Origin: Eledone cirrhosa
Taxonomy: Eukaryota
NCBI GenBank assembly: GCA_964016885.1
Contig: OZ024742.1
Coordinates: 366,048,001-366,112,000, forward strand
Direction of reading: 5' to 3'
Length of the DNA stretch: 64,000 nucleotides
The position numbers were made by a program, and so were the translations under genes. Under the pieces are notes generated by a model. The model made no database searches. It was not told where the DNA came from and worked only from the letters and a program-made list of their open reading frames with translations. This document shows positions 1 to 45,300 of the stretch, in pieces. Within the stretch, counting starts at the first letter, position 1. Each line of letters begins with the position of its first letter.

Positions 1-999
1 TGTTTTAAGGCGCCGTCGTCGTCGGCGATCGCGTCGGCGGCGGTCTCTCGTTTCGACAGTTCGACCGCCGACCGCCTCGCCGGCGTTACGATTCGCGGGG
101 TGCCGGCATCGGACGCACTTCCCCTTCGATCCGTCGTCGCGATCCGTTCCCGTCAGGCTGGATGGCGCGCGGTGTCCGCAGGTCGCAGAGCGGCGTCCCG
201 CCTAGAAAACGAACACTCCCGGTTCGCTTTCGAAGCGGGTTTCCGAAAACAGCGCTTCTCTCGACCGGGCCCGTCGCTCGGCGGCGGTTTTTTTTCCGTC
301 GTCCCAGGCACGGCTAACAGGCGGGGACGGGACAAACGCGCGTGTTCCTTTATCAGCCGCAGCGCCGTTCGTAATGCTTAGGTCGGTTTTTTATATCCTT
401 AAAATTCTGATCGGCTTTCGAGAAAGCAGCCGCCCCGTTTGCTTTTTCTCCTTTGCTCTCTTTGCGGAGCAGGCGGGAGCGGGTCGCTGGGCGGATGAGG
501 ATCGCGAGCCGTCCGCTGCTGCAAGTCTGCGACGAGCATCGGCAACCTACCCGACCCGTCTTGAAACACGGACCGAGGAGTCCCAGTCGGTTGCGAGTCG
601 TTGGAGCGAAAGAAATCGAATTTAACAAACTCCGACGGCGAAGTGAAAGCGAGAACGTGACGCGTCGTCGACGGCGGCGTTAGGGGCTGGTTTGAATTGG
701 CGGCATGCGGCATGGCCTTCGGGTGGTGTCGCTGTTGTTTTTTTCTTCTTTTTTCCGCGCTGTCGTAGGCGTTTCGAAGCATCGTTCCCGGGTCGGGTGT
801 GCGCGCGGCGTGGCGGCTTTCGGGCCGTCGGCGCGGCGCGCTCCGACTCAGGTGTAACAGGCGGCCGGGGACTCGAAAGATGGCGATTCACGCCCGGTCG
901 GGACGAAGCCAGAGGAAACTCTGGTGGAAGTCCGAAGCGCCTCTGACGTGCACATCGATCGTCAGAACCGGGTGTAGGGGCGAAAGACCAATCGAGCCG

Positions 1000-1042
<43 letters not shown>

Positions 1043-3021
1043 CGCCAGCAGCAGACAGAACGACACGCAATTCCGTCCGGTAAAGCGAACGACTGGAGGC
1101 CCCGGGGACGTTGACGGTCTCGATCTAATCTCGAACTCGGAACGGGCGAAACGGGCCGCTCTCTCTCCCGATCGGAGGCGGCCGCCGTCTCGGCGACGAA
1201 TGCACGGTGCCAAATGGGCCACTTTTGGTAAGCAGAACTGGTGATGTGGGATGAACCGAACGTCCGGCTAAGGTGCCCTACGCTTCGCCCATTAGATCCC
1301 CGAAAGGGTGTCGGTCGATATAGACAGCAGGACGGTGGCCACGGAAGTCGGAATCCGCTCAGGAGTGTGTAACAACTTACCTGCCGAATCGACCGGCCCC
1401 GAAAATGTATGGCGCTGGAGCGAGCGACCGATGCCGGACCGGCCAGGCGATAGGCGAAAAAAGGTGACACGACGTAACTTTCTTCGATGCCTGGTCGAGT
1501 AGGAAGGCGCCGCGGCGTGCACGGAAGCCGCGGGCGTGAGCCCGGGTGAAGCCGACCGCGGGTGCAGATCTCGGTGGTAGTAGCAAATATTCGAACGAGA
1601 CCTTCGAAGACCGAAGGGGAGAAGGGTTCCGTGCCAACGGCGGTCGAGCACGGGTCAGTCGGTCCTAAGAAGCGGGCGAAAGCTTGTACGAAAGGCGCCG
1701 GATCCGTTGTCGAGAAAGAGAAAGAGAAAAAAAAAATCGTTTTTTTTCTTCTCTGTTTTTGTTACGGCCGGCCTTGCATCGAAAGGGAATCGGGTTAATA
1801 TTCCCGAACCCGAACTCGGAGAGTGCTCGTCCGTCGGTGGAATTTAACGCGTCGTCGCGTCATCGAAGCCGGCGGTCGGGCGAAGCAGCGGCAACGCAAG
1901 CGAGCCCGGAGACGTTGCCGGGAGCCCCGGGAAAAGTTCTCACTTCTTCGTAAGGACCGCGTCCGTGGAATCGGCTCGTCAGGAGATACGGATATGGTAC
2001 CTGTAGAGCGCCGCGTCTAGGGCGGCGTCCGGTGCGCTCTCGGCGGCCCTGGAAAATCCGGGTCCGTAACGATTCGCAGCTCTCGAGTCGGTCCGTACCC
2101 ACCATCCGCAGCAGGTCTCCAAGGTGTACAGCCTCTCGTCGATAGCGCCAATGTAGGTAAGGGAAGTCGGCAAAATGGATCCGTACCTTCGGAAGAAGGA
2201 TTGGCTCCGAGGACCGGGTCGGTCGGGCCGTGTGTGTGTCGGCCTGTCGGCTGTCTTGCTGTTTTTTTTCAAAAACTCAGGATCGGTCGCGCGGCACGTC
2301 TGTACACGAAGCGGTGAACCGGTACGGGGCTGTAGCGTTGGCGTCGGACTCGACGTTCGAGCGTCGGTCGGGTGGCCGGTTTGCGCCCGTTTCGTTGCGT
2401 TCATTTCGTTTTTCCTTGCCCTTCTTTCGGTTGGCGGCAAGGAGAGAGAGAGGAAGAAGGCAGCGGCGGCTGCGGGTTGGTCGCGCGGTGGCGGACGGGG
2501 TTGAAAGATTACCGCGTAGGAGGGATGAAGGCGCATCATATGGAGAGGCTTGTCGCCCGTAAGGGCGGTTTGTTTTTTTACTCTGCTCGCTTTTGTTTTG
2601 TTCTTTCGGTTTTTTTTCTTTCCTTACTATTCGTCGCAGTGCCGGCGGCTCGCGCGTCGTCGTCGTCTTTTTTTCTTCGTTTTCTTCGTTTTTGTCGGTC
2701 GGAAACAAAAACGGGGGGCTTGTAGAGGCAAGCATGCGTAAGAGAGCGGCGTTTCGGTCGCTTTTTGCGACGTTCGGTGCGTAGTGGGCGCGAACAACAC
2801 GGCTCCACGCCTGGGACACCGTGGAGCGACACGGCTTCGGGCTCGTTGGCGCGTCGGTAGCTTCTTTCTTTCTTCTTCGCGAGGAGGAGGGCGGTTGCCG
2901 AGACGCGCGGCAGGCGTTCGGCCGGCGGCGAACGGTCAACTCGGAACTGGTACGGACCGGGGGAATCCGACTGTCTAATTAAAACAGAGCATCGCGTAGC
3001 CGGCCGAGCCGCATAGACGCG

Positions 3022-3053
<32 letters not shown>

Positions 3054-3070
3054 AGTGAAGAAATTCAACT

Positions 3071-3108
<38 letters not shown>
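1..3108 (+). rRNA. 28S: 28S (LSU) rRNA gene, part upstream of the R2-site insertion (begins before the window)
   Basis: Conserved LSU motifs in order: ACCCGTCTTGAAACACGGACC (554), GGGGCGAAAGACCAATCGA, TTTCCCTCAGGATAGCTGG, GGTAAGCAGAACTGG, CCGCAGCAGGTCTCCAAGGTG, TTTCTGCCCAGTGCTCTGAATGTCAAAGTGAAGAAATTCAA...GTAACTATGACTCTCTT (ends 3108). Long GC- and T-rich expansion segments lie between them. Confidence 0.98.
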
Positions 3109-4474
3109 GGTCGGCGCTACCCTTGAAGTGGGAAGAGAGCTTAAGTCCGTGGTTTGAGCTGTACGAGTGAGTCAACTTGACGCGTGTCTATGCCTTCGGA
3201 CGCGTGTCCGTACCTTCGGAAGTTCGGCTCCGTTCGGGTGTCGGGCCTGCTCGGAAGTTCGGCTCCGAGGTGCGGGTTCAGGTTGGCTCGGCAGGTTTTA
3301 CCATACTCGGGTGGTCTGCCACACTAAGGACGAACTAATTGGCGCATAAAATAATGATTGAAAGATTATTAAAAATCATTTATATCCGTACGGTAGCTGG
3401 GGGCTGTTTTAAAGCCAGTGACCGAGGGGTCGGGTTGGGCCCCTTAGGTTTACTAGGAGTTCTGTAATTTCTGCCCAGTGCTCTGAATGTCAAAGTGAAG
3501 AAATTCAACCGAGCGCGGGTAAAACGGCGGGAATAGCTATGATTCTCTTAGGTCTACCGCAGTGTGCCGTTGTGGTATCTCCGTGATGGTATTTTAGCGT
3601 GCCGTGATGGTATTTCCGCTGCCGTAATGGTTCGCTGTGGTATTTAACCACCCTTGAGGGCTGACAAGGAGCCGGGGCATGCCCTTTGGATTAGAGCTGG
3701 CTCAGATTTTTTTTTTTTGCCCTTTTTTTAATTATTTTTTTTTTTGTGTGTGGACGCGGAAGTGCCTGGAAACTCTCTTTCTAATTTTTTTTTTTAACCC
3801 GGTGAGCGGTCGGATATAATATCCGAGAAGGGAAAAGTAAGACGTCTCCGCCGTTCCGCTAGTCTGGTGGTTCGCCTTGGGAAAGCGATAGAATCACCTT
3901 ATCCCCCCGTTGCAGGGTTACGCGTCTCTTAAATTAAAGTGCTTTTTTTTTTGTATTATTAATTAACAGTTTCGTTATTTTAGGAATGAGAAGGGAGTGA
4001 CTAAATGGATTCTGGAGCGCCCCCTTTTTTTTTTAAGTACAATGGCACGACCAAGGAGTTTAGAACCTCTCTGTGCGGGGGTTCGGGCAACAGGATCTCC
4101 TCGCGGGGTTCAAGGTTCGGATTGCTCACTTGGCGCGACCAACCGGATTGACAGAATGGCACGACCAGAAGAGATTAGTACCTCGCATTGTTCGCTCGGT
4201 AGGGGGGTTCCCAGCCAACCCTCGCAGGGTCCATGGCTTGGACTGCTCTCTTGGCGTGACCAACCGGATTGACAGATGGCACGGCTGATGGCGGTTCGAA
4301 TTGCGGTCGGCGTGACATGATGACTCTGCCACGGCCGATGGGCGGTTTGGATTGCGGTCGGCGTGACCAACCGGATTGACATGGGCACACCGTTCATGCC
4401 ATAGTGTGCCACTTTAAAAGCAGGGAAAGGCATCTTATGTTTTGAGAAAAGCATAAGTTAAATGCCAGCTATCA
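3109..4474 (+). mobile_element. Non-coding insertion at the 28S R2 target site (candidate non-autonomous R2-dependent element, or two stacked insertions)
   Basis: 28S stops at GACTCTCTT (3108) and resumes at TAGCCAAATGCC (4475). The 3' junction is the canonical R2 site AAGG^TAGCC, with a small deletion of upstream target and no TSD. No RT or endonuclease ORF is present. Internal 28S copy at 3463-3552. Confidence 0.85.
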
Positions 4475-4549
4475 TAGCCAAATGCCTCGTCATCTGATTA
4501 GTGACGCGCATGAACGGATCAACGAGATTCCCACTGTCCCTATCTACTG

Positions 4550-4581
<32 letters not shown>

Positions 4582-5136
4582 AGACGGATCGGTGGGGAAA
4601 CAAGACCCTGTTGAGCTTGACTCTAGTCTGGTTTTGTGAGGGCACACGGTAGGCGTAGCATAGGCGGGAGCAATCTTGCGTCTCTCGGCAGGCGGCAGCG
4701 TCGTTTGCGGGTCGCTTGCGGCTTTGCGGCGGCGTTTGCCGTCTGTCGGGTACCGTGCGCGTTTGCGTCGAAGAAAAACCGCCACTTCCGTAGTTTCTTC
4801 GCTCACTCGATTGAGAAGGGACGGGGCCGTCGCCGAGCGGTGGTTCATTTATCTGGTGCGAAGCGTGCGGTGCATGTCACGCGCGCACACGTTGTGCGCC
4901 GACGCAGCCGATGCGCGACACTTAGTCGAGAACAGTGTCGGTCGGGGAGTTTGACTGGGGCGGTACGTCTGTCAAAGGGTAACGCAGGTGTCCCAAGGCG
5001 AGCTCAGCGTGGACGGAAACCACACGTTGAGCAAAAGGGCAAAAGCTTGCTCGATCTCGATTTTCAGTACGAATACGGACCGCGAAAGCGTGGCCCATCG
5101 AGCCTTTCCGAATAGCGGCGAGCTATGCGTCCGCCG

Positions 5137-6885: not shown

Positions 6886-9800
6886 AGTGGAGTTGACCCC
6901 TATTGGTGGGTAGACAGGGGAGTTAATCCCTCATGGTGCGAAGACATGGGAGTTGACCCCTCATGGTGGATAACTGTAGACAGGGGAGTTGACCCCTCTG
7001 TTGGGTAACTGTAGACAGGGGAATTGAACCCTCGTGGTGGGTAACTGTAGACAGGGGAGTTGACCCCTCATGGTGGGTAGATAGGTGAGTTGAACCCTCT
7101 GGTGGGTAGACAGGGGAGTTGACCACTCATGGTGGGTAGACATGGGAGTTGATCCCTCATGGTGGGTAATTGTAGACAGGGGAGATGATGCCTCATGGTG
7201 GGTAACTGTAGACAGGGGTGTTGATCGCTCATGGTGGGTAACTGTAGACAGGTGAGTTGATCCGTCTTGGTGGGTAACTGTAGACAGGGGAGTTGATCCA
7301 ACATTGTGGGTAGACAGGGGAGTTGACCCCTCATTGTGGGTAACTGTAGACAGGGGAGTTGACCCCTCGTGGTGAGTAACTGTATACAGGGGAGTTGATC
7401 CTTCATGGTGGGTAGTCAGGGGAATCGATCCCTCATGGTGGGTAGACAGGGGGTTTGTTCCCTCATGGTGGGTAACTGTAGACAGGAGAGTTGACCCTTC
7501 GTGGTGAGTAACTGTAGACAGGGGAGTTGATCCCTCATGGAGGGTAGACAGGGGATTTGATCCCTCATTTTGGGTAACTGTAGACAGGGGAGTTGCCCCC
7601 TCATGGTGGGTAACTGTAGACAGGGGAGTTGATCCCTCATAGTGAGTAGCAGAGGGGAGTTTATCCCTCATGGTGGGTAGACAAGGGAATTGATCCCTCA
7701 TGGTGGGTAACTGTAGACAGGGGAGTTGACCCCTCGTGGTGAGTAACTGTATACAGAGGAGTTGATCCCTCATGGTGGGTAGTCAGGGGAATGGATCCCT
7801 CATGGTGGGTAGACAGGGGGTTTGTTCCCTCATGGTGGGTAACTGTAGACAGGAGAGTTGACCCCTCGTGGTGAGTAACTGTAGACAGGGGAGTTGACCC
7901 CTCAGGTGGGTAACTGTAGACTGGGAAGTTGATCCCTCGTGGTGGGTAACTGTAGACAGGGGGGTTGACCCCTAGTGGTGGGTAACTGTAGACAGGGAAG
8001 TTGACCCCTCGTGGTGGGTTGCTGTAGATAGGGGACTTGATCCCTCATAGTGGGTAACGGTAGTGAGTGGGGTTGACCCCTCGTTGTGAGTAACTGTAGA
8101 CAGGGGAGTTGATCTCTGGGGTGGGTAAATGTAGACAGGGTAGTTGACCACTGGTGGTGGGTAACTGTAGACAGGGGAGTTGACCCCTCATTGTGGGTAG
8201 ACAGGGGAGTTGACCACTAATGGTGGGTAACTGTAGATAGGGAAGTTGACCGCTCGTGGTGGGTAACTGTAGACAAGGGAGTTGATCCCTCATGGTGGGT
8301 AACTGTAGAGAGGGGAGTTGATGCCTCATGGTGGGTGTATAGAGGATTTGACCCCTAGTGGTGGTTAACTGTAGACAGGGAAGTTGACCCCTCAAGGTGG
8401 GTAACTGTAGACAAGGGAGTTGATCCCTATGGTGGGTAGACAGGAAGTTGATCGCTCATGGTGGGTAACTGTAGACATGGGATTTGACCCCTCAAGGTGG
8501 GTAACTGTAGACAGGGAGTTGACCCCTCATGGTGGGTAGACAGGGGATATGACCGCTCATGATGGGTAACTGTAGACATGGGAGTTGATCCCTCGTGCTG
8601 GGTAACTGTAGACAGGGTAGTTGATCCCTCATGGAGGGTAGACAGGGGATTTGATCCCTCATTTTGGGTAACTGTAGACAGGGGAGTTGCCCCCTCATGG
8701 TGGGTAACTGTAGACAGGGAAGTTGATCCCTCATGCTGGGTAGACAGGGTAGTTGACCCCTTTTTTATGGGTAACTGTAGACAGGGGAGTTGATCCCTCA
8801 TAGTGAGTAGCCAGGGGAGTTTATCCCTCATGGTGGGTAGACAAGGGATTTGATCCCTCATGGTGGGTAACTGTAGACAGGGGAGTTGATCCCTCATGGT
8901 GGGTAGACAAGGGATTTGATCCCTCATGGTGGGTAACTGTAGACAGGGGAGTTGATCCCTCATGGTGGGTAGACAAGGGATTTGATCCCTCATGGTGGGT
9001 AACTGTAGACAGGGGAGTTGATCCCTCATGGTGGGTAACTGTAGCCAGGGGAGTTTATCCCTCATGGTGGGTAGACAAGGGATTTGATCCCTCATGGTGG
9101 GTAACTGTAGACAAGGGATTTGATCCCTCATGGTGGGTAACTGTAGACAGGGGAGTTGATCCCTCAGTGTGGGTAACTGTAGACAGGGAAGTTGATCCCT
9201 CAGGGTGGGTAACTGTAGACAGCGGAGTTGACCCCTCGTGGTGGGTAACTGTAGACAGGGGAGTTGATCTCTCGTTGTGGGTAGACAGGGGAGTTAACCC
9301 CTCATGGTGGGTAACTGTAGACAGGGTATTTTAACCCTCGTGGTGGGTAACTGTAGACAGGTGAGTTGATCCCTCATAGTGGGTAGACAGGGGAGTTGAC
9401 CCCTCATTGTGGGTAACTGTAGACAGGGAAGTTGACCTCTCGTGCTGTGTAACTGTAGACAGGGGAGTTGATCCCTCAGTGTGGGTAACTGTAGACAGGG
9501 AAGTTGATCCCTCATGGTGGGTAGCCAGGGGAGTGGATCCTACATGGTGGGTAGACAGGGGATTTGTTCCCTATGGTGGGTATCTCTAGAGAGTGGGGTT
9601 GACCCCTCGTTGTGGGTAACTGTAGACAGGGGAGTTGAACCCTTATGGTGGGAAGACATAGGAGTTGACCCCTACAGATGGGTAACTGTAGACAGGGGAG
9701 TTGAACTCTAAAGGTGGGTAGACAGGGGAGTTGATCCGTCCTTGTGGGTAACTGTAGACAGGGAAGTTGACCCCTCATCGTGGGTAGACAGGGGAGTTGA

Positions 9801-10650
9801 CCCCTCATGGTGGGTAGACAGGTATGTTGAATCATCATGGTGGGTAGACAGGGGAGTTGACCCCTCATGGTGGGTAGACAGGTATGTTGAATCATCATGG
9901 TGGGTAGACAGGGGAGTTGACCCCTCATGGTGGGTAGACAGGGAGTTGACCTCACATGGTGAGTAACTGTAGACAGGGGAGTTGACCCATCATGGTGGGT
10001 AACTGTAGACAGGGGAGTTGACCCCTCATGGTGGGTAACTGCAGACAGGGAGATTTTCCCTGATACGTGTTAGACGGGGGAGTTGACACCTCAAGGTAGG
10101 TAACTGTAGACAGGGGCGTTGACCCCTCATGGTGGGTAGACAGGGGATTTGACCCCTTGTGGTGGGTAACTGTAGACAGGGGAGTTGACCCCTAATGGTG
10201 AGTAGACAGGGGAGTTGACCCCTCATTGTGGGTAACTGTAGACCGGGGAGTTGACCCCTCATTGTGGGTAACTGTAGACAGGGGAGTTGACCACTCATCG
10301 TGGGTAACTGTAGACAGGGGAATTGATGACTCATGGTGGGTAGACAGGGGAGTTGACCCATCATTGTGGGTAACTGTAGACAGGGTAGTTGACCACTCGT
10401 AGTAGGTAACTGTAGTCAGGGGAGTTGACACCTCATTGTGTGTAGACAGGGGAGTTGACCACTAATGGTGGGTAACAGTAGACAGGGAAGTTGACCCCTC
10501 GTGGTGGGTAACTGTAGACATGGGAGTTGATCCCTCATGGTGGGTAACTCTAGACAGGGAAGTTGACCGCTCGTCGTGGGTAACTGTAGACAGGGGAGTT
10601 GATGCCTGGTGGTGGGTAACTGTAGAGAGAGGAGTTGATCCCTCATGGGG
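6886..10650. repeat. G-rich satellite with mixed 27-bp and 36-bp units
   Basis: Tandem units of consensus GGTGGGTA(ACTGTA)GACAGGGGAGTTGA(C/T)CCCTCAT, with 9- and 12-residue periodicity in the ORF track. Confidence 0.97.
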
Positions 10651-10651
10651 G

Positions 10652-12007
10652 GTCTACAGTTTCGCCGAAACACTTGTGCCCATCACCGACCAGGAAAGAA
10701 AAATCATCCTCCACGCCAGGAAGACAGTCTTACTCTTTGACAACTCTAAATGGATAAAAAGAGCTCCCGACTCACACTTCGACGTCAGCATGGGCGCCAC
10801 GGATTCGGCGGAGGTCACAGATCTTATAGGATTATTCCTAATAGCCAAACTCACCGATATGTTTCCTGCATTCGGTGGTGGATTGTACCGTGATGATGGG
10901 CTTCTTACCCTTAAAGGGTACAATCCCAGTAGTACAGATCGGGTCCGGAAACAATTAATCAGCTTCTTCCGCGACTGGGGATTTAAAATAACCCTACAAA
11001 CGTCCCTGACCCGAGTAAACTTCCTAGACGTGACCCTCGACCTCGAAAACGACCTGTACTACCCATACAGGAAACCTAATGACAACCTGCACTACATCCA
11101 CCGCCGATCAAACCATCCTAGGAACATCACCTACAACCTGGTCAAAAACATCGCCCTCCGCATATCCCGTTTGTCAGCTAATGAGCGGATATTCGATGAA
11201 CATGCGCCTTATTACAACCAGGCCCTCAAGCGGAGTGGTTTCCGGGAGGAAATATCCTACTGTCCAGCTCCCATTAGCGGAACCAGCAGGAGACACCGCC
11301 GCTCACGCAATGTAACATGGTTCAATCCTCCCCACAACGCCGAGGTGACAACCCCTATCGGGAAAATATTCTTTAGGCTCATTGAAAAACACTTCCCACT
11401 ACAACACCGCTACCACAACATAATTAACAAAAATACCATCAAACTCTCTTACAGCCCTACACCAAACTTCGCACAAAACATCGTCTCCTCTAACAACAAA
11501 AAACTCAACCCCGATGGAAGAAATAACCTAAATAGCAGTGGAGAGCCGACCAGGAGGTGCAACTGTCCGGATAGATCCATTTGCCCACTCGACAATAGAT
11601 GCAGAGATCGTAATGTGATCTACCAGTGCAACGTGAGGACGGACACCTCCAACAAAGCTTATATAGGATTAACCACATGTGACTTCAAGACCCAGCTATA
11701 CCAACATAGACATACCTTCCGAAACCCGGCCCGCCGTCACGCCACTACACTTTCGAGCCACATATGGGACCTCAAGGACAACAACATCACCTAAGATCTC
11801 ACTTGGAGATTACTGTCCAGAGCCAACTCTTACACGGGGGGACGCCGTCCGTGCAATTTATGCTCGGAGGAAACTTTACAAATGCTGTTTTCGACGGACC
11901 AACTCCTAAACAAGAAAGATGAACTGGTTACTGCATGTAAACATAGATTGCGTAGGACTTACCTCGCCCTCAAACCCCATAATGACCCGGGGGCGGGGGT
12001 AGACTAG
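10652..12007 (+). pseudogene. PLE RT + GIY-YIG endonuclease ORF remnant, 5'-truncated, one premature TAA
   Basis: The frame continues past TAA (11792-11794) as DLTWRLLSRANSYTGGRRPCNLCSEE...NKKDELVTACKHR to TAG at 12007. The first ~44 residues of the listed ORF are satellite read-through. Confidence 0.88.
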
Positions 12008-24728: not shown

Positions 24729-27700
24729 CCACCAGGTCAGTCAACCACACACCACCACCAGGTCAGTCAACCACACACCACCACCAGGTCAGTCAACCAC
24801 ACACCACCACCAGGTCAGTCAACCACACACCACCACCAGGTCAGTCAACCACACACCACCACCAGGTCAGTCAACCACACACCACCACCAGGTCAGTCAA
24901 CCACACACCACCACCAGGTCAGTCAACCACACACCACCACCAGGTCAGTCAACCACACACCACCACCAGGTCAGTCAACCACACACCACCACCAGGTCAG
25001 TCAACCACACACCAACACCACCACCAGGTCAGTCAACTACACACCACCACCAGGTCAGTCAACCACACACCACCACCACCACCAGGTCAGTCAACCACAC
25101 ACCACCACCAGGTCAGTCAACCACACACCACCACCAGGTCAGTCAACTACACACCACCACCACCACCAGGTCAGTCAACCACATACACACCACCACCACC
25201 AGGTCAGTCAACCACATACACACCACCACCACCAACAAGTCAGTCAACCACACACACCACCACCAACAGGTCAGTCAGCTACACACCACCACCACCAGGT
25301 CTGTCAACCACACACACACCACCACCACCAGGTCAGTCAACCACACACACACCACCACCACGACCAGGTCAGTCAGGTACACACACCACCACCACTACCA
25401 CCAGGTCAGTCAACCACACACACACCACCACTACCAGGTCAGTCAACCACACACCACCACCACCACCAGGTCAGTCAACCACACACACACCACCACCACC
25501 ACTACCAGGTCAGTCAACCACACACACACCACCACCAGGTCAGTCAGGTACACACACCACCGACACCACCACCACCAGGTCAGTCAACCACACACCACCA
25601 CCACCACCACCACCAGGTCAGTCAGCTACACACACACCACCACCACAACCACCACCACCAGGTCAGTCAACCACACACCACCACCAGGTCAGTCAACCAC
25701 ACACACACCACCACCACCGCCATGTCAGTCAACAACACACCACCACCACTTCCAGGTCAGTCAACCACACACACACCACCACCACCGCCATGTCAGTCAA
25801 CCACACACCACCACCACCACCACCAGGTCAGTCAGCTACACACCACCACCACCAGGTCAGTCAGCTACACACCACCACAACCACCAGGTCAGTCAACCAC
25901 ACACACACCACCACAACCACCAGGTCAGTCAACCACACACACACCACCACCACCACGAGGTCAGTCAACCACACACACACCACCACCACCACCACCAGGT
26001 CAGTCAACCACACACACACCACCAGGTCAGTCAGGTACACACCACCACCACCACCACCAGGTCAGTCAGCTACACACCACCACCACCACCAGGTCAGTCA
26101 ACCACACACACACCGCCACCACCACGAGGTCAGTCAACCACACACACACCACCACCACCAGGTCAGTCAACCACACACCACCACCACCACCAGGTCAGTC
26201 AACCACACACCACCACCACCACCAGGTCAGTCAACCACACACCACCACCACCACCAGGTCAGTCAACCACACACCACCACCACCACCAGGTCAGTCAACC
26301 ACACACCACCACCAGGTCAGTCAACCACACACACACCACCACCACCAGGTCAGTCAACCACACACCACCACCACCACCAGGTCAGTCAACCACACACACG
26401 CCACCACCACCAGGTCAGTCAACCACACACACGCCACCACCACCAGGTCAGTCAACCACACACCACCACCACCACCAGGTCAGTCAACCACACACCACCA
26501 CCAGGTCAGTCAACCATACACACGCCACCACCACCAGGTCAGTCAACCACACACACGCCACCACCACCAGGTCAGTCAACCACACACCACCACCACCACC
26601 ACCAGGTCAGTCAACCACACACCACCACCACCACCAGGTCAGTCAACCACACACACGCCACCACCACCAGGTCAGTCAACCACACACACACACCACCACC
26701 ACCAGGTCAGTCAACCACACACACGCCACCACCACCACCAGGTCAGTCAACCACACACCACCACCACCACCAGGTCAGTCAACCACACACACACACCACC
26801 ACCACCAGGTCAGTCAACCACACACCACCACCACCACCAGGTCAGTCAACCACACACACACACCACCACCACCAGGTCAGTCAACCACACACACGCCACC
26901 ACCACCAGGTCAGTCAACCACACACACGCCACCACCACCACCAGGTCAGTCAACCACACACCACCACCACCACCAGGTCAGTCAACCACACACACACCAC
27001 CACCACCAGGTCAGTCAACCACACACACACACCACCACCACCAGGTCAGTCAACCACACACACGCCACCACCACCACCAGGTCAGTCAACCCCACACCAC
27101 CACCACCACCAGGTCAGTCAACCACACACACGCCACCACCACCACCAGGTCAGTCAACCACACACACACACCACCACCACCAGGTCAGTCAACCACACAC
27201 ACACCACCACCACCAGGTCAGTCAACCACACACACACACCACCACCACCAGGTCAGTCAACCACACACACACCACCACCACCAGGTCAGTCAACCACACA
27301 CACACACCACCACCACCAGGTCAGTCAACCACACACACACCACCACCACCAGGTCAGTCAACCACACACCACCACCACCACCACCACCAGGTCAGTCAAC
27401 CACACACCACCACCACCAGGTCAGTCAACCACACACACGCCACCACCACCAGGTCAGTCAACCACACACCACCACCACCACCACCAGGTCAGTCAACCAC
27501 ACACCACCACCACCACCAGGTCAGTCAACCACACACCACCACCACCACCACCAGGTCAGTCAACCACACACCACCACCACCACCACCAGGTCAGTCAACC
27601 ACACACCACCACCACCACCAGGTCAGTCAACCACACACCACCACCACCACCACCAGGTCAGTCAACCACACACCACCACCACCACCAGGTCAGTCAACCA

Positions 27701-30700
27701 CACACCACCACCACCACCAGGTCAGTCAACCACACACCACCACCACCACCACCACCAGGTCAGTCAACCACACACCACCACCACCACCACCAGGTCAGTC
27801 AACCACACACCACCACCACCACCACCAGGTCAGTCAACCACACTCCACCACCACCACCACCAGGTCAGTCAACCACACACCACCACCACCACCACCAGGT
27901 CAGTCAACCACACACCACCACCACCACCACCAGGTCAGTCAACCACACACCACCACCACCACCAGGTCAGTCAACCACACACCACCACCACCACCACCAG
28001 GTCAGTCAACCACACTCCACCACCACCACCAGGTCAGTCAACCACACACCACCACCACCACCACCAGGTCAGTCAACCACACACACCACCACCACCACCA
28101 GGTCAGTCAACCACACACACCACCACCACCACCAGGTCAGTCAACCACACACCACCACCACCACCAGGTCAGTCAACCACACACCACCACCACCACCACC
28201 AGGTCAGTCAACCACACACCACCACCACCACCACCACCAGGTCAGTCAACCACACACACCACCACCACCACCAGGTCAGTCAACCACACACCACCACCAC
28301 CACCAGGTCAGTCAACCACACTCCACCACCACCACCACCAGGTCAGTCAACCACACACCACCACCACCACCAGGTCAGTCAACCACACACCACCACCACC
28401 ACCACCAGGTCAGTCAACCACACACCACCACCACCACCACCACCAGGTCAGTCAACCACACACCACCACCACCAGGTCAGTCAACCACACACCACCACCA
28501 CCACCAGGTCAGTCAACCACACACCACCACCACCACCAGGTCAGTCAACCACACACCACCACCACCACCACCAGGTCAGTCAACCACACACCACCACCAC
28601 TTCCAGGTCAGTCAACCACACACCACCACCACCACCAGGTCAGTCAACCACACACCACCACCACCACCAGGTCAGTCAACCACACACCACCACCACCACC
28701 AGGTCAGTCAACCACACACCACCACCACCACCAGGTCAGTCAACCACACACCACCACCACCACCACCACCAGGTCAGTCAACCACACACCACCACCACCA
28801 CCACCAGGTCAGTCAACCACACACCACCACCACCACCACCACCACCAGGTCAGTCAACCACACACCACCACCACCACCACCACCAGGTCAGTCAACCACA
28901 CACCACCACCACCACCACCAGGTCAGTCAACCACACACCACCACCACCACCACCACCAGGTCAGTCAACCACACACCACCACCACCACCACCAGGTCAGT
29001 CAACCACACACCACCGCCACCACCACCACCACCAGGTCAGTCAACCACACACCACCACCACCACCACCACCAGGTCAGTCAACCACACACCACCACCACC
29101 AGGTCAGTCAACCACACACCACCACCACCACCACCAGGTCAGTCAACCACACACCACCACCACCACCACCAGGTCAGTCAACCACACACCACCACCACCA
29201 CCACCAGGTCAGTCAACCACACACCACCACCACCACCACCAGGTCAGTCAACCACACACCACCACCACCACCACCAGGTCAGTCAACCACACACCACCAC
29301 CACCACCAGGTCAGTCAACCACACACCACCACCACCACCACCACCACCAGGTCAGTCAACCACACACCACCACCACCACCACCAGGTCAGTCAACCACAC
29401 ACCACCACCACCACCACCACCAGGTCAGTCAACCACACACCACCACCACCACCACCAGGTCAGTCAACCACACACCACCACCACCACCACCACCACCAGG
29501 TCAGTCAACCACACACCACCACCACCACCACCACCAGGTCAGTCAACCACACACCACCACCACCACCACCACCACCAGGTCAGTCAACCACACACCACCA
29601 CCACCACCACCAGGTCAGTCAACCACACACACCACCACCACCACCAGGTCAGTCAACCACACACCACCACCACCACCACCACCACCAGGTCAGTCAACCA
29701 CACACCACCACCACCACCACCACCAGGTCAGTCAACCACACACACACCACCACCACCAGGTCAGTCAACCACACACCACCACCACCACCACCACCAGGTC
29801 AGTCAACCACACACACCACCACCACCACCAGGTCAGTCAACCACACACCACCACCACCACCACCAGGTCAGTCAACCACACACCACCACCACCACCAGGT
29901 CAGTCAACCACACACCACCACCACCACCAGGTCAGTCAACCACACACCACCACCACCACCACCAGGTCAGTCAACCACACACCACCACCACCACCAGGTC
30001 AGTCAACCACACACCACCACCACCACCAGGTCAGTCAACCACACACCACCGCCACCACCACCAGGTCAGTCAACCACACACACCACCACCACCACCAGGT
30101 CAGTCAACCACACACACCACCACCACCACCAGGTCAGTCAACCACACACACCACCACCACCACCAGGTCAGTCAACCACACACACCACCACCACCACCAG
30201 GTCAGTCAACCACACACCACCACCAGGTCAGTCAACCACACACCACCACCACCACCAGGTCAGTCAACCACACACCACCACCACCACCACCAGGTCAGTC
30301 AACCACACACCACCACCACCACCACCAGGTCAGTCAACCACACACCACCACCACCACCACCAGGTCAGTCAACCACACACCACCACCACCACCACCAGGT
30401 CAGTCAACCACACACCACCACCACCACCAAGTCAGTCAACCACACACCACCGCCACCACCACCAGGTCAGTCAACCACACACACACACCACCACCACCAG
30501 GTCAGTCAACCACACACCACCGCCACCACCACCAGGTCAGTGAACCACACACCACCACCACCACCACCACCAGGTCAGTCAACCACACACACCACCACCA
30601 CCACCAGGTCAGTCAACCACACACCACCACCACCACCACCAGGTCAGTCAACCACACACGCCACCACCACCAGGTCAGTCAACCACACACCACCACCACC

Positions 30701-32665
30701 ACCACCAGGTCAGTCAACCACACACCACCACCACCACCAGGTCAGTCAACCACACACCACCACCACCACCACCAGGTCAGTCAACCACACACCACCACCA
30801 CCACCACCAGGTCAGTCAACCACACACCACCACCACCACCAGGTCAGTCAACCACACACCACCACCACCACCACCAGGTCAGTCAACCACACACCACCAC
30901 CACCACCACCACCAGGTCAGTCAACCACACACACCACCACCACCACCAGGTCAGTCAACCAGACACCACCACCACCACCACCAGGTCAGTCAACCACACA
31001 CCACCACCACCACCAGGTCAGTCAACCACACACCACCGCCACCACCACCAGGTCAGTCAACCACACACCACCACCACCACCAGGTCAGTCAACCACACAC
31101 CACCACCACCACCACCAGGTCAGTCAACCACACACCACCACCACCACCACCAGGTCAGTCAACCACACACCACCACCACCACCACCAGGTCAGTCAACCA
31201 CACACCACCACCACCACCAGGTCAGTCAACCACACACCACCACCACCACCAGGTCAGTCAACCACACACCACCACCACCACCACCAGGTCAGTCAACCAC
31301 ACACCACCACCACCAGGTCAGTCAACCACACACACCACCACCACCACCAGGTCAGTCAACCACACACACCACCACCACCAGGTCAGTCAAGCACACACCA
31401 CCACCAGGTCAGTCAACCACACACCACCACCACCACCAGGTCAGTCAACCACACACCACCACCACCACCAGGTCAGTCAACCACACACCACCACCACCAC
31501 CACCAGGTCAGTCAACCACACACACCACCACCACCAGGTCAGTCAACCACACACCACCACCACCACCAGGTCAGTCAACCACACACCACCGCCACCACCA
31601 CCACCAGGTCAGTCAACCACACGCACACCACCACTACCAGGTCAGTCAACCACACACCACCACCACCACCACCAGGTCAGTCAACCACACACCACCGCCA
31701 GGTCAGTCAACCACACACCACCACCACCACCACCAGGTCAGTCAACCACACACCACCACCAGGTCAGTCAACCACACACCACCACCACCACCACCACCAG
31801 GTCAGTCAACCACACACCACCGCCACCACCACCACCAGGTCAGTCAACCACACTCCACCACCAGGTCAGTCAACCACACACCACCGCCACCACCACCACC
31901 ACCAGGTCAGTCAACCACACACCACCACCACCAGGTCAGTCAACCACACACACCACCACCACCACCAGGTCAGTCAACCACACACCACCACCAGGTCAGT
32001 CAACCACACTCCACCACCACCACCACCACCAGGTCAGTCAACCACACTCCACCACCAGGTCAGTCAACCACACACACGCCACCACCACCAGGTCAGTCAA
32101 CCACACTCCACCACCCCAACAACCAGGTCAGTCAACCACACACTCCACCACCAGGTCAGTCAACCACACACCACCACCACCACCACCAGGTCAGTCAACC
32201 ACACACCACCACCACCACCACCACCAGGTCAGTCAACCACACACCACCACCACCACCAGGTCAGTCAACCACACACCACCACCACCACCAGGTCAGTCAA
32301 CCACACACACCACCACCACCACCACCAGGTCAGTCAACCACACTCCACCACCACCACCAGGTCAGTCAACCACACACCACCACCACCACCACCACCAGGT
32401 CAGTCAACCACACACCACCACCACCACCACCACCAGGTCAGTCAACCACACACCACCACCACCACCACCACCAGGTCAGTCAACCACACACACCACCACC
32501 ACCACCACCACCAGGTCAGTCAACCACACACCACCACCACCACCACCACCAGGTCAGTCAACCACACACACCACCACCACCACCACCACCAGGTCAGTCA
32601 ACCACACACCACCACCACCACCACCAGGTCAGTCAACCACACACCACCACCACCACCACCACCAT
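24729..32665. repeat. ~7.9-kb minisatellite AGGTCAGTCAACCAC(AC)n(ACC)n
   Basis: Near-invariant AGGTCAGTCAACC spacer between variable CA and CCA runs. It explains the three His/Thr/Pro ORFs. Confidence 0.98.
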
Positions 32666-35727: not shown

Positions 35728-36329
35728 TATATATATATATATATATATTTATAAATTAAAGTATAGAAATTGTTGTGAGCGTGAAGCCAACAGTATTTCA
35801 TAATATATATATATATATATATACATATATGTATATATGTATATATATTTATATATTTTATATATATATACACAATGTGGGCTGGGTACTTTTTGTTATG
35901 TTACCTATAAGACGACTTTATGAGCAAGAAATGGTCATCGGAACGTGGTTTGTCTCACAACAGAGCAACTCGTTTAAAAAAGGCTAGCATGGAAAATTGG
36001 AGGTTAAACTATGATGATGATGTTTTATATATACACACACACACACACACATATATATATATGTGTGTGTGTGTGTGTAATTAAAATAATAAAGGGTTAA
36101 AAAACATGTTTACAGTACACAGTGTTAAAATATGATTGTGATGACAATGATGTTGACATTGTAAAAATATTTTAACCTAAATAATTTAATTTCCTTTTTA
36201 AACCTTATTCATTGTCACAACCATCAGTTTCCAACATCACTACCACCACTGCCTCTACTGCCAGCACCACCTCTACCACCACCACCACCATCATCATCAT
36301 TACCACATCATTCAGCATTGCTGAAGCTA

Positions 36330-39300
36330 TCACTCCCACCACCTACAGCACCACCACCAAAACCATGGCTGCAAATACCTTCATCATTACTACCACCACC
36401 ACCACCACCACCCTAACCATAGCTGTCAATACCATCATCATTACCACCACCACCACCACCACCACCACCACCACCCTAACCATAGCTGTCAATACCTTCA
36501 TCATTACTACCACCACCACCACCACCACCCTAACCATAGCTGTCAATACCATCATCATTACCACCACCACCACCACCACCCTAACCATAGCTGTCAATAC
36601 CATCATCATTACCACCACCACCACCACCACCCTAACCATAGCTGTCAATACCTTCATCATTACTACCACCACCACCACCACCACCCTAACCATAGCTGTC
36701 AATACCATCATCATTACTACCACCACCACCACCACCACCACCACCCTAACCATGGCTGTCAATACCTTCATCATTACTACCACCACCACCACCACCACCC
36801 TAACCATAGCTGTCAATACCATCATCATTACCACCACCACCACCACCACCCTAACCATAGCTGTCAATACCATCATCATTACCACCACCACCACCACCAC
36901 CCTAACCATAGCTGTCAATACCTTCATCATTACTACCACCACCACCACCACCACCCTAACCATAGCTGTCAATACCCTCATCATTACCACCACCACCACC
37001 ACCACCACCACCACCACCCTAACCATAGCTGTCAATACCATCATCATTACCACCACCACCACCACCACCACCACCACCACCACCACCACCACCCTAACCA
37101 TAGCTGTCAATACCATCATCATTACCACCACCACCACCCGAACCATAGCTGTCAATACCATCATCATTACTACCACCACCACCACCACCACCACCCTAAC
37201 CATGGCTATCAATACCATCATCATTACCACCACCACCACCACCACCACCCTAACCATAGCTGTCAATACCACCACCACCACCACCACCACCCTAACCATA
37301 GCTGTCAATACCATCATCATTACCACCACCACCACCACCCTAACCATGGCTGTCAATACCCTCATCATTACCACCACCACCACCACCCTAACCATAGCTG
37401 TCAATACCACCACCACCACCACCACCACCCTAACCATAGCTGTCAATACCCTCATCATTACCACCACCACCACCACCCTAACCATGGCTGTCAATACCCT
37501 CATCATTACCACCACCACCACCACCACCACCCTAACCATAGCTGTCAATACCACCACCACTACCACCACCACCCTAACCATAGCTGTCAATACCATCATC
37601 ATTACCACCACCACCACCACCACCACCCTAACCATGGCTGTCAATACCATCATCATTACCACCACCACCACCACCACCACCCTAACCATAGCTGTCAATA
37701 CCTTCATCATTACCACCACCACCACCACCACCACCACCACCACCCTAACCATAGCTGTCAATACCATCATCATTACCACCACCACCACCACCCTAACCAT
37801 AGCTGTCAATACCATCATTACTACCACCACCACCACCACCACCACCACCACCCTAACCATAGCTGTCAATACCATCATTACTACCACCACCACCACCACC
37901 ACCACCCTAACCATAGCTGTCAATACCATCATTACTACCACCACCACCACCCTAACCATGGCTGTCAATACCATCATCATTACTACCACCACCACCACCA
38001 CCACCACCCTAACCATAGCTGTCAATACCATCATTACCACCACCACCACCACCCTAACCATGGCTGTCAATACCATCATCATTACTACCACCACCACCAC
38101 CACCACCACCCTAACCATAGCTGTCAATACCATCATTACCACCACCACCACCACCCTAACCATGGCTGTCAATACCATCATCATTACCACCACCACCACC
38201 ACCACCACCCTAACCATAGCTGTCAATACCATCATCATTACTACCACCACCACCACCACCACCACCCTAACCATAGCTGTCAATACCATCATTACTACCA
38301 CCACCACCACCACCACCCTAACCTTAGCTGTCAATACCATCACCACCACCACCACCACCCTAACCATAGCTGTCAATACCATCATCATTACCACCACCAC
38401 CACCACCACCACCCTAACCATAGCTGTCAATACCATCATCATTACCACCACCACCACCACCACCACCACCACCACCACCCTAACCATAGCTGTCAATACC
38501 TTCATCATTACTACCACCACCACCACCACCACCACCCTAACCATAGCTGTCAATACCATCATTACTACCACCACCACCACCACCACCACCCTAACCATAG
38601 CTGTCAATACCATCATCATTACCACCACCACCACCACCACCACCCTACCATAGCTGTCAATACCATCATCATTACCACCACCACCACCACCACCACCCTA
38701 ACCATAGCTGTCAATACCTTCATCATTACTACCACCACCACCACCACCACCACCCTAACCATAGCTGTCAATACCATCATTACTACCACCACCACCACCA
38801 CCACCACCCTAACCATAGCTGTCAATACCATCATCATTACCACCACCACCACCACCACCACCCTACCATAGCTGTCAATACCATCATCATTACCACCACC
38901 ACCACCACCACCACCCTACCATAGCTGTCAATACCATCATCATTACCACCACCACCACCACCACCACCCTAACCATAGCTGTCAATACCATCATTACTAC
39001 CACCACCACCACCACCACCACCCTAACCTTAGCTGTCAATACCATCATCATTACCACCACCACCACCACCACCACCACCCTAACCATAGCTGTCAATACC
39101 ATCATCATTACTACCACCACCACCACCACCACCCTAACCATAGCTGTCAATACCATCATCATTACTACCACCACCACCACCACCACCACCCTAACCATAG
39201 CTGTCAATACCATCATTACTACCACCACCACCACCACCCTAACCATAGCTGTCAATACCATCATCATTACTACCACCACCACCACCACCCTAACCATAGC

Positions 39301-42300
39301 TGTCAATACCATCATTACTACCACCACCACCACCACCACCACCCTAACCATAGCTGTCAATACCATCATTACTACCACCACCACCACCACCCTAACCATA
39401 GCTGTCAATACCATCATCATTACTACCACCACCACCACCACCCGAACCATAGCTGTCAATACCATCATTACTACCACCACCACCACCACCACCACCACCC
39501 TAACCATAGCTGTCAATACCATCATCATTACCACCACCACCACCACCACCACCCTAACCATAGCTGTCAATACCATCATTACTACCACCACCACCACCAC
39601 CCTAACCATAGCTGTCAATACCATCATTACTACCACCACCACCACCACCACCACCACCACCCTAACCTTAGCTGTCAATACCATCATCATTACTACCACC
39701 ACCAGCACCACCACCCTAACCATAGCTGTCAATACCATCATTACCACCACCACCACCACCACCACCCTAACCATAGCTGTCAATACCATCATTACTACCA
39801 CCACCACCACCACCACCACCACCACCCTAACCTTAGCTGTCAATACCATCATCATTACTACCACCACCACCACCACCACCCTACCATAGCTGTCAATACC
39901 ATCATTACCACCACCACCACCACCACCACCCTAACCATAGCTGTCAATACCATCATTACTACCACCACCACCACCACCACCACCCTAACCTTAGCTGTCA
40001 ATACCATCATCATTACTACCACCACCACCACCACCACCACCACCCTAACCATAGCTGTCAATACCATCATTACTACCACCACCACCACCACCACCCTAAC
40101 CATAGCTGTCAATACCCTCATTACTACCACCACCACCACCACCACCACCCTAACCATAGCTGTCAATACCATCATCATTACTACCACCACCACCACCACC
40201 ACCACCCTAACCATAGCTGTCAATACCATCATTACTACCACCACCACCACCACCACCACCCTAACCATAGCTGTCAATACCATCATTACTACCACCACCA
40301 CCACCCTAACCATAGCTGTCAATACCATCATCATTACCACAACCACCACCACCACCACCCTAACCATAGCTGTCAATACCATCATTACTACCACCACCAC
40401 CCTAACCATAGCTGTCAATACCATCATCATTACCACAACCACCACCACCACCACCCTAACCATAGCTGTCAATACCATCATTACTACCACCACCACCCTA
40501 ACCATAGCTGTCAATACCATCATCATTACCACAACCACCACCACCACCACCCTAACCATAGCTGTCAATACCATCATTACTACCACCACCACCCTAACCA
40601 TAGCTGTCAATACCATCATCATTACCACCACCACCACCACCACCACCCTAACCATAGCTGTCAATACCATCATTACTACCACCACCACCCTAACCATAGC
40701 TGTCAATACCATCATCATTACCACAACCACCACCACCACCACCCTAACCATAGCTGTCAATACCATCATCATTACTACCACCACCACCACCACCACCCTA
40801 ACCTTAGCTGTCAATACCATCATCATTACTACCACCACCACCCTACCATAGCTGTCAATACCATCATCATTACCACCACCACCACCACCACCACCCTAAC
40901 CATAGCTGTCAATACCATCATTACTACCACCACCACCACCACCACCACCCTAACCATAGCTGTCAATACCATCATCATTACCACCACCACCACCACCACC
41001 ACCCTAACCATAGCTGTCAATACCATCATCATTACCACAACCACCACCACCACCACCCTAACCATAGCTGTCAATACCATCATCATTACCACCACCACCA
41101 CCACCACCACCCTAACCATAGCTGTCAATACCATCATTACTACCACCACCACCACCACCACCACCCTAACCATAGCTGTCAATACCATCATCATTACCAC
41201 CACCACCACCACCACCACCCTAACCATAGCTGTCAATACCATCATCATTACCACAACCACCACCACCACCACCCTAACCATAGCTGTCAATACCATCATC
41301 ATTACCACCACCACCACCACCACCACCACCCTAACCATAGCTGTCAATACCATCATCATTACTACCACCACCACCCTACCATAGCTGTCAATACCATCAT
41401 CATTACCACCACCACCACCACCACCACCCTAACCATGGCTGTCAATACCTTCATCATTACCACCACCACCACCACCACCCTAACCATAGCTGTCAATACC
41501 TTCATCATTACCACCACCACCACCACCACCACCCTAACCATGGCTGTCAATACCATCATCATTACTACCACCACCACCACCACCACCCTAACCATGGCTG
41601 TCAATACCTTCATCATTACCACCACCACCACCACCACCACCACCCTAACCATAGCTGTCAATACCTTCATCATTACCACCACCACCACCACCACCACCCT
41701 AACCATAGCTGTCAATACCTTCATCATTACCACCACCACCACCACCACCACCCTAACCATAGCTGTCAATACCTTCATCATTACCACCACCACCACCACC
41801 ACCACCACCCTAACCATAGCTGTCAATACCTTCATCATTACCACCACCACCACCACCACCCTAACCATAGCTGTCAATACCTTCATCATTACCACCACCA
41901 CCACCACCACCACCACCCTAACCATGGCTGTCAATACCTTCATCATTACCACCACCACCACCACCACCCTAACCATAGCTGTCAATACCTTCATCATTAC
42001 CACCACCACCACCACCACCACCCTAACCATAGCTGTCAATACCTTCATCATTACTACCACCACCACCACCACCACCACCACCCTAACCATGGCTGTCAAT
42101 ACCTTCATCATTACCACCACCACCACCACCACCCTAACCATAGCTGTCAATACCTTCATCATTACCACCACCACCACCACCACCCTAACCATAGCTGTCA
42201 ATACCTTCATCATTACCACCACCACCACCACCACCACCACCCTAATCATAGCTGTCAATACCTTCATCATTACCACCACCACCACCACCACCACCACCCT

Positions 42301-45300
42301 AACCATAGCTGTCAATACCTTCATCATTACCACCACCACCACCACCACCACCCTAACCATAGCTGTCAATACCTTCATCATTACTACCACCACCACCACC
42401 ACCACCCTAATCATAGCTGTCAATACCTTCATCATTACTACCACCACCACCACCACCACCCTAACCATAGCTGTCAATACCATCATCATTACCACCACCA
42501 CCACCACCACCACCCTAACCATAGCTGTCAATACCATCATCATTACCACCACCACCACCACCACCCTAACCATAGCTGTCAATACCATCATTACTACCAC
42601 CACCACCACCACCCTAACCATAGCTGTCAATACCATCATCATTACTACCACCACCACCACCACCCTAACCATAGCTGTCAATACCATCATTACTACCACC
42701 ACCACCACCACCACCACCCTAACCATAGCTGTCAATACCATCATTACTACCACCACCACCACCACCCTAACCATAGCTGTCAATACCATCATCATTACTA
42801 CCACCACCACCACCACCCGAACCATAGCTGTCAATACCATCATTACTACCACCACCACCACCACCACCACCACCCTAACCATAGCTGTCAATACCATCAT
42901 CATTACCACCACCACCACCACCACCACCCTAACCATAGCTGTCAATACCATCATTACTACCACCACCACCACCACCCTAACCATAGCTGTCAATACCATC
43001 ATTACTACCACCACCACCACCACCACCACCACCACCCTAACCTTAGCTGTCAATACCATCATCATTACTACCACCACCAGCACCACCACCCTAACCATAG
43101 CTGTCAATACCATCATTACCACCACCACCACCACCACCACCCTAACCATAGCTGTCAATACCATCATTACTACCACCACCACCACCACCACCACCACCAC
43201 CCTAACCTTAGCTGTCAATACCATCATCATTACTACCACCACCACCACCACCACCCTAACCATAGCTGTCAATACCATCATTACCACCACCACCACCACC
43301 ACCACCCTAACCATAGCTGTCAATACCATCATTACTACCACCACCACCACCACCACCACCCTAACCTTAGCTGTCAATACCATCATCATTACTACCACCA
43401 CCACCACCACCACCACCACCCTAACCATAGCTGTCAATACCATCATTACTACCACCACCACCACCACCACCCTAACCATAGCTGTCAATACCCTCATTAC
43501 TACCACCACCACCACCACCACCACCCTAACCATAGCTGTCAATACCATCATCATTACTACCACCACCACCACCACCACCACCCTAACCATAGCTGTCAAT
43601 ACCATCATTACTACCACCACCACCACCACCACCACCCTAACCATAGCTGTCAATACCATCATTACTACCACCACCACCCCCTAACCATAGCTGTCAATAC
43701 CATCATCATTACCACAACCACCACCACCACCACCCTAACCATAGCTGTCAATACCATCATTACTACCACCACCACCCTAACCATAGCTGTCAATACCATC
43801 ATCATTACCACAACCACCACCACCACCACCCTAACCATAGCTGTCAATACCATCATTACTACCACCACCACCCTAACCATAGCTGTCAATACCATCATCA
43901 TTACCACAACCACCACCACCACCACCCTAACCATAGCTGTCAATACCATCATTACTACCACCACCACCCTAACCATAGCTGTCAATACCATCATCATTAC
44001 CACAACCACCACCACCACCACCCTAACCATAGCTGTCAATACCATCATTACTACCACCACCACCCTAACCATAGCTGTCAATACCATCATCATTACCACC
44101 ACCACCACCACCACCACCCTAACCATAGCTGTCAATACCATCATTACTACCACCACCACCCTAACCATAGCTGTCAATACCATCATCATTACCACAACCA
44201 CCACCACCACCACCCTAACCATAGCTGTCAATACCATCATCATTACTACCACCACCACCACCACCACCCTAACCTTAGCTGTCAATACCATCATCATTAC
44301 TACCACCACCACCCTACCATAGCTGTCAATACCATCATCATTACCACCACCACCACCACCACCACCCTAACCATAGCTGTCAATACCATCATTACTACCA
44401 CCACCACCACCACCACCACCCTAACCATAGCTGTCAATACCATCATCATTACCACCACCACCACCACCACCACCCTAACCATAGCTGTCAATACCATCAT
44501 CATTACCACAACCACCACCACCACCACCCTAACCATAGCTGTCAATACCATCATCATTACCACCACCACCACCACCACCACCCTAACCATAGCTGTCAAT
44601 ACCATCATTACTACCACCACCACCACCACCACCACCCTAACCATAGCTGTCAATACCATCATCATTACCACCACCACCACCACCACCACCCTAACCATAG
44701 CTGTCAATACCATCATCATTACCACAACCACCACCACCACCACCCTAACCATAGCTGTCAATACCATCATCATTACCACCACCACCACCACCACCACCAC
44801 CCTAACCATAGCTGTCAATACCATCATCATTACTACCACCACCACCCTACCATAGCTGTCAATACCATCATCATTACCACCACCACCACCACCACCACCC
44901 TAACCATGGCTGTCAATACCTTCATCATTACCACCACCACCACCACCACCCTAACCATAGCTGTCAATACCTTCATCATTACCACCACCACCACCACCAC
45001 CACCCTAACCATGGCTGTCAATACCATCATCATTACTACCACCACCACCACCACCACCCTAACCATGGCTGTCAATACCTTCATCATTACCACCACCACC
45101 ACCACCACCACCACCCTAACCATAGCTGTCAATACCTTCATCATTACCACCACCACCACCACCACCACCCTAACCATAGCTGTCAATACCTTCATCATTA
45201 CCACCACCACCACCACCACCACCCTAACCATAGCTGTCAATACCTTCATCATTACCACCACCACCACCACCACCACCACCCTAACCATAGCTGTCAATAC

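Follow-up and report, generated by a model that had tools for sequence, protein, structure and literature searches.

Known R2 derivatives and the octopus family

The closest described system is R2Dwi_SIDE of Drosophila willistoni, in which an R2 5′ ribozyme is joined to an R2 3′ end without an ORF and which is inserted at the R2 site, with varied 5′ junctions and compensatory changes in its 3′ structure (Eickbush and Eickbush, 2012, PMC3414825). One pure R2 SIDE is described there among 39 Drosophila species, and such parasites are argued to be rare and short-lived. R2 ribozymes cleaving 9–36 nt upstream in the 28S sequence are described as well (PMC3774820), and 5′ junction variation with duplications of upstream 28S sequence is reported as a mark of R2 integration (PMC3414825; PMC3774820). 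For cephalopods, R2 elements have already been catalogued (Hassan et al., 2026, PMC13188248, Table S2).

The window, i.e., the whole analysed stretch of 64,000 nucleotides, carries an insert at the R2 site of a 28S rRNA gene. At the DNA level, the family to which this insert belongs agrees with the R2 SIDE of D. willistoni in every defining feature of the element itself; the kind is already described from Drosophila, and the octopus family adds to a rare kind. The likeness to R2Dwi_SIDE extends to the joined R2 ends, the missing ORF, the insertion site, the varied 5′ junctions and the compensatory 3′ changes. The identity to the parent ends is similar, about 70–92% in the octopus family compared to 64% and 81% in R2Dwi_SIDE, and the size is 1.2–1.4 kb instead of 529 bp (PMC3414825). 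Unlike R2Dwi_SIDE as described there, the octopus family has no poly(A), has a P1 predicted to be formed from 28S, retains relics of the ORF start, and comprises several subfamilies; an internal 28S target copy occurs, and the host has two R2 families. Ribozyme activity was assayed for R2Dwi_SIDE (PMC3414825), whereas in the octopus family it is predicted from the sequence.

In the R2 elements of PMC3774820 the 5′ strand of P1 is likewise supplied by 28S, and upstream duplications occur at the 5′ junctions; the octopus element differs in being non-coding, and its predicted site at −11 is not among the values noted from that work (−9, −13, −25, −27, −28, −29 and −36). The cephalopod R2s of PMC13188248 are autonomous and the term "non-autonomous" is absent from its main text, in contrast to the non-autonomous octopus family. 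No R2 SIDE outside Drosophila was found in the literature searched, a scope ending short of Repbase, Dfam, subscription journals and four supplements of PMC13188248, and none is named in passages of PMC5786205, PMC6765202, PMC13580325, PMC10946416, PMC5035012 and PMC13188248.

The insert and its rDNA unit

All features of the rDNA unit and the insert are given on the forward strand. On the upstream side of the R2 site, the 28S rRNA gene covers positions 1–3108 (Rfam LSU match) and breaks off after ...GACTCTCTT; downstream of the R2 nick it restarts with TAGCCAAATGCC at 4475 and extends to 5676. The insert between them (3109–4474, 1,366 bp) is a non-autonomous, internally deleted R2 derivative of the SIDE type, and its 3′ end is exactly the R2 nick. 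An empty site on another contig (L052) reads CTCTTAAGG^TAGCC, so AAGG (or AA) has been replaced by the window insert. This loss is a family trait, because R2-A copies (see below) lack AAGG or AA as well. No target site duplication, no poly(A) and, among three detected repeat pairs, no terminal inverted repeat were found in the insert. The earlier note, written from the letters of the window, had given the same insert boundaries, the same missing target bases and the same missing terminal features, and is right in all three.

Upstream the rDNA unit is complete: the adjacent stretch (L056) contains 18S, 5.8S and the 5′ end of the LSU, and the unit starts before the window. As no second rDNA unit follows downstream in the window, the unit is either isolated or located at the end of an array. 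Tandem arrays with repeat lengths of 36, 35 and 54 bp and a lone 5S gene follow the unit (6889–10653, 24978–32661, 36329–47815 and 57694–57812).

The downstream part of the 28S gene includes TATGCGTC at 5124–5131, which we place in H88 of the 28S map; the chance expectation of this 8-mer in the window is 0.62. The motif has been reported at the helix-88 rRNA break of incirrate octopuses (PMC13321053). By this 28S motif the host is probably an incirrate octopus, in agreement with the probable cephalopod proposed before.

The 28S heptamer 3102–3108, the predicted 5′ strand of ribozyme P1 (pairing scan), directly precedes the insert. Within the insert, the predicted HDV-like ribozyme body (3113–3345; descriptor scan, covariation and alignment) is followed by a decayed relic of the R2-A coding-frame start with stops inside (3346–3455), which belongs to the block 3271–3455 matching R2-A 108–266 at 133 of 175 positions. 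An internal stretch copied from the 28S sequence that precedes the R2 target (3463–3552, 91% identical to 3023–3112) and a second relic of the early R2-A frame (3620–3705, 58/83 to R2-A 289–371) lead to the conserved R2-A 3′ UTR block (3795–3925, 103–106 of 134–135 positions identical to three R2-A copies). Short internal direct repeats, which differ in number between subfamilies, occupy 4041–4381, and the R2-A-like 3′ terminus (4382–4474) contains a hairpin at 4429–4466 (fold z −3.68).

The longest stop-to-stop frames in the insert encode 115 aa on the reverse and 101 aa on the forward strand, and no relic of a reverse transcriptase or endonuclease was found by comparison with R2-A and R2-B. 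The initial description of an ORF-less insert without such remnants holds in this respect; it had missed the two early-frame relics, the internal 28S copy and the multi-copy nature of the insert. An Rfam scan of 3050–4520 returned LSU pieces and one chance match only. A head of the SINE type, derived from a tRNA, 5S or 7SL gene and with an internal Pol III promoter, was not found, the 5′ end of the insert being R2-derived. A stretch of 27 nt at about 4409 is absent from the window copy and retained in the other eight aligned copies shown.

Resident R2 families

Two R2 families, R2-A and R2-B, use the same 28S site. R2-A shares five blocks with the insert in the same order, three at the 5′ end (61/66, 133/175 and 58/83) and two in the 3′ UTR (103/135 and 89/126). 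R2-B has only the ribozyme core in common with the insert, and its 3′ end shows no similarity to it (best E 1.5). The R2-A protein matches RVT_1 (E 1.2e-30), and its best solved relative in the PDB is an R2 protein (E 1.6e-114). A protein database search gave one relative at 30%. Read by eye from different copies, the R2-A protein contains motifs which we take to be three zinc fingers, a Myb motif (GCWSEEE), a CCHC motif and the PD..D of the endonuclease. By its domains and its 28S site, R2-A is placed as a member of the R2 clade.

In 12 loci (46 of 87,517 candidates scored, in an assembly in which rDNA arrays collapse), no R2-A copy with a single frame from the zinc fingers to the endonuclease was found; the frame of L039 covers 995 aa without the endonuclease. 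The sole whole open frame found belongs to R2-B (L035, 1,214 aa, through the endonuclease). The short copies are monophyletic with respect to R2-A in two trees, one built from the 5′ block (25 rows) and one from a 3′ UTR block (22 rows), each with 100/100 support. From this single clade it follows that the short family arose once and then diversified. A full-length R2 family with the same termini, which the earlier note had proposed to look for, is present in R2-A, and the R2/parasite pair it had postulated would correspond to a non-coding family and the R2-A family with shared ends in one genome.

At G000:C18:15.044–15.077 Mb (L032–L034, L060), a single 28S site carries about ten R2-A, R2-B and short elements stacked head to tail. 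Every later insertion is attached to the 5′ end of the one before it, whose P2 5′ strand was removed in two R2-A cases. The stack is interrupted by a different transposase-like frame. The same region contains, at a 28S junction, a 510-bp internally deleted R2-A (L032:971–1480), of which one copy was seen. Its first 396 nt are joined to its last 140 nt and it has a complete predicted ribozyme; possibly a new SIDE is arising here. Further R2 subfamilies in the genome are suggested by R2-like but divergent 3′ ends that adjoin TAGCC (L053:6404 and L055).

Predicted ribozyme and 3′ hairpin

As Rfam matched no ribozyme family in the insert, the fold rests on our own descriptor scan. P1 is predicted between the 28S positions 3102–3108 and 3133–3139, P2 between 3113–3119 and 3340–3345, and P3 between 3120–3122 and 3130–3132 with a 7-nt L3 (3123–3129). 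A single P1.1 pair (G3125–C3140), a large P4 domain of ~190 nt (3141–3334) and the putative catalytic C3335, located in CUAA before P2, complete the predicted structure. An HDV-like 5′ fold, as expected of an R2 SIDE, is thereby found at the level of prediction. In nine of ten junctions scanned, 3102–3108 is the best 7-bp partner of 3133–3139; the exception is a tandemly arrayed R2-B, which is not preceded by 28S. Position 1 of P1 is a C, which is atypical of HDV-like ribozymes. Self-cleavage would occur just 5′ of 3102, which is 11 nt upstream of the nick of the intact site.

Of 31 cores, 30 have the J4/2 motif, and 26 of these 30 also have a P2 of 6–7 bp; the four cores failing P2 have lost their 5′ ends. 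For P2, both partners have changed in five of seven pairs, and 0 of 500 shuffles equalled the whole model. The test covered 20 of 30 rows, which had been selected by their J4/2 motif, and excluded five R2-B, L048 and the four damaged rows; its shuffle control ignores relatedness, and several changes stem from one divergent row. P1, P3 and P1.1 barely vary and therefore lend no support by covariation, and covariation in the first P4 hairpin is weak (297/500 shuffles, 26 of 28 rows). Two other assignments were rejected: a catalytic C at 3159 in GAGCU is not followed by a P2 partner, and in the motif CGGYAGGU, tried as J4/2, the position is a U in many copies. A "DELIGA" peptide that the insert has in common with R2-A reflects conservation of the J4/2–P2 RNA and not protein constraint. 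Read by eye, the R2 of Octopus vulgaris (PMC13188248, Table S2) has this ribozyme core too: its P1 3′ strand is identical, CUAA precedes a P2 partner, and P3 differs (GCC/GGC for CCC/GGG).

At L3 position 3127, the window copy has an A, where 22 of 26 rows have a C. For an inactive sow-bug ribozyme, L3 changes from C to A and from G to A are described (PMC3774820), and the sow-bug change is possibly at the same position. Taken together, the L3 change and the 27-nt 3′ deletion indicate that the window copy is probably dead, i.e., probably no longer mobile.

In the 3′ hairpin, eight of 15 pairs are changed on both sides, 94% of the cells pair, and one of 500 shuffles reached this level, in a test of 21 of the 22 ends, all but the divergent one of L038, with shuffles that ignore relatedness. 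The divergence among copies is 4–8% in the blocks shared with R2-A vs. 10–15% in the spacers. It is lowest among the short copies in the block 3795–3925 (4.4%), which alone folds no better than shuffles (z −0.40). The terminal 93 nt diverge by 11.6%, like the spacers, with compensatory changes in the hairpin.

Copies, site occupancy and read support

A search of the own genome gave at least 109 matches (40 of 64 candidates scored). Sixteen full-length copies of about 1.2–1.4 kb were found on six contigs, 15 of them unsplit (1,158–1,384 bp) and one split by R2-B (L037); fragments were also seen, including a 5′-truncated copy (L012). Ten representative copies are 81–92% identical to the window copy, and the 28S sequence downstream of nine inserted units is 96–99% identical. 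Exact 28S upstream sites in the assembly number 22, of which 14 start with the short element, five with R2-A, one with R2-B and one with a 12-nt stub, and one is empty; as assemblies collapse uniform rDNA, these counts do not equal the fraction in the animal. A further unit (C6) holds the short element and is outside the 22 by pattern mismatch, and a candidate site on C28 was discarded as a decayed orphan 28S piece. The 28S unit L051 (G000:C1:80.9457 Mb) carries a 12-nt stub of non-28S sequence at its R2 site.

Thirteen of the 15 unsplit copies end directly at TAGCC (TATCC in one of them). The other two end at a CA microsatellite (L006), with clean ends and outside rDNA, and at the start of R2-B (L011). 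About ten 5′ junction types occur among the copies, and a single subfamily (94.6–98.9% identity) shows four, including an extra CT and upstream 28S duplications of 14 and 19 nt. The earlier note had named multiple copies that agree in their 3′ junction and vary at the 5′ junction as support for its reading, and many such copies are seen in the genome. Identical junctions are shared by three copies on C4, two on C25 and three on C12/C25, so inserted rDNA units have been duplicated passively as well. Elsewhere in the genome, a 70-bp tandem satellite of about 30 copies, derived from 28S just downstream of the R2 site (L054:6402–8499, G000:C6:50.985 Mb), begins at an element-like 3′ junction.

Short-read contigs from three runs of one sample, possibly the source of the assembly, match the window copy exactly in the element interior at 3556–3695 and 4089–4256 (depth 8–13). 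A variant contig over 3735–3925 has a depth of 132–159, and its loose end matches the L018/L020 subfamily. Depth not being equal to copy number, this only suggests that one subfamily is strongly under-represented in the assembly. In RAD-seq data from another sample and study, 28 of 92 placed reads match at ≥99%.

Origin and mode of propagation

The insert is very probably one copy of a protein-less family composed of the R2-A 5′ end and 3′ UTR. The element would be co-transcribed with 28S by Pol I and its RNA freed by the predicted ribozyme, with 28S supplying the 5′ strand of P1. The R2-A protein, supplied in trans, would then bind the 3′ UTR of the element and carry out target-primed reverse transcription into new R2 sites, which would make the family a parasite of a parasite. 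Inserted rDNA units have been multiplied passively in addition, giving copies with identical junctions.

It is improbable that the family instead goes back to the single origin of a dead R2 with an internal deletion, multiplied only by unequal crossing-over or duplication of rDNA units. Such an origin would account for the identical junctions in repeated units and agrees with the finding of no intact R2-A in the 12 loci examined, and there is a precedent in the degenerate R2 of Bacillus stick insects (PMC4370867). R2Br-deg of Bacillus rossius is likewise a non-coding R2 derivative multiplied within rDNA; as described there it is full-length with an inactive ribozyme, whereas the octopus element is internally deleted and has varied junctions and a non-rDNA copy. 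Unit duplication by itself fits neither the variety of the 5′ junctions (about ten types, target duplications included) nor the compensatory changes and the lower divergence in the cis-elements. It is already weakened by the non-rDNA copy, a clean-ended full copy in a microsatellite, and another such copy stands before R2-B. A true non-autonomous element moved by R2-B, or by another R2 with relaxed recognition, rather than by R2-A has a slightly smaller probability still. The sole whole open frame found is that of R2-B, and both families use the same site and have a related ribozyme core; against this, both the terminal hairpin and the block in the 3′ UTR agree with R2-A and co-vary with it, and the element has no match to the 3′ end of R2-B.

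The earlier note had itself named three ways in which its reading might fail, namely that the insert is only the 3′ UTR of a 5′-truncated R2, that it is unrelated DNA captured once, or that it is an assembly artefact. One 5′-truncated copy (L012) does exist, and the read support of the window copy covers the element interior. However, the insert carries the R2-A 5′ end, 16 full-length copies are present, and the interior is supported by exact short-read contigs and by reads from a second sample, so that these explanations retain a negligible probability. A non-autonomous family that depends on R2-A is accordingly preferred over all of them.

A diversified mollusc family at 14 of 22 assembled target sites suggests that R2 SIDEs can persist and become common, and that such elements are missed by surveys that rely on ORFs. 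Parent and parasite together map the RNA parts that an R2 protein would need, i.e., the ribozyme, the 130-nt 3′ UTR block and the terminal hairpin, which bears on the design of templates for R2-based gene insertion.

Internal copy of the 28S target

The internal piece at 3463–3552 (90 nt) is 91% identical to the 28S sequence that immediately precedes the target. It occurs with shared changes in four loci, the window, L002, L037 and partly L048, and by its sequence the window copy is a member of the subfamily with this piece. The built-in landing site is the one feature that may set the family apart as a variant. In L037, a full-length R2-B lies inside the internal 28S piece, about 70 nt of which are duplicated upstream of R2-B. 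At its 3′ end, R2-B abuts the downstream sequence of the element itself, no more than one base off the register of a true nick. A direct insertion of R2-B into the piece is likely here, in one event, because recombination with R2-B-bearing rDNA would bring TAGCC along. This one event implies that about 85 nt of upstream target suffice outside the rDNA context. The literature searched gave no description of an R2 that had landed in a target site within a SIDE.

In the 3′ tree, the four piece-bearing or piece-derived copies are separated from nine others with 100/99 support. The piece is absent at three different junctions, and 9 nt of parental sequence are retained in the piece-bearing form and missing from the others; both observations hint that the piece is ancestral and was lost repeatedly. 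Rooting with R2-A did not separate gain from loss (AU p 0.32 and 0.087). Tentatively, and as a scenario that we consider rather doubtful, this could be an old octopus SIDE lineage in which a working internal landing site acts as a decoy for other R2s. The piece would have been lost several times, and a decoy-less subfamily would now outnumber its helper and fill a large share of the rDNA units, a hyperparasite shaping R2 load and rDNA turnover.

A 28S-derived sequence is also present in the 3′ UTR of a fish R2 lineage, whose insertion is described as replacing 110–130 bp of 28S (Kojima et al., 2016, PMC5035012). The octopus family shows no replacement of this kind, and its piece, unlike that of the fish lineage as described there, has served as a target for another R2. 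A chimeric short copy (L034:1633–2481) consists of a SIDE 5′ part, ~170 nt of unrelated AT-rich sequence and R2-A pieces, and keeps 8 nt of the internal 28S piece.
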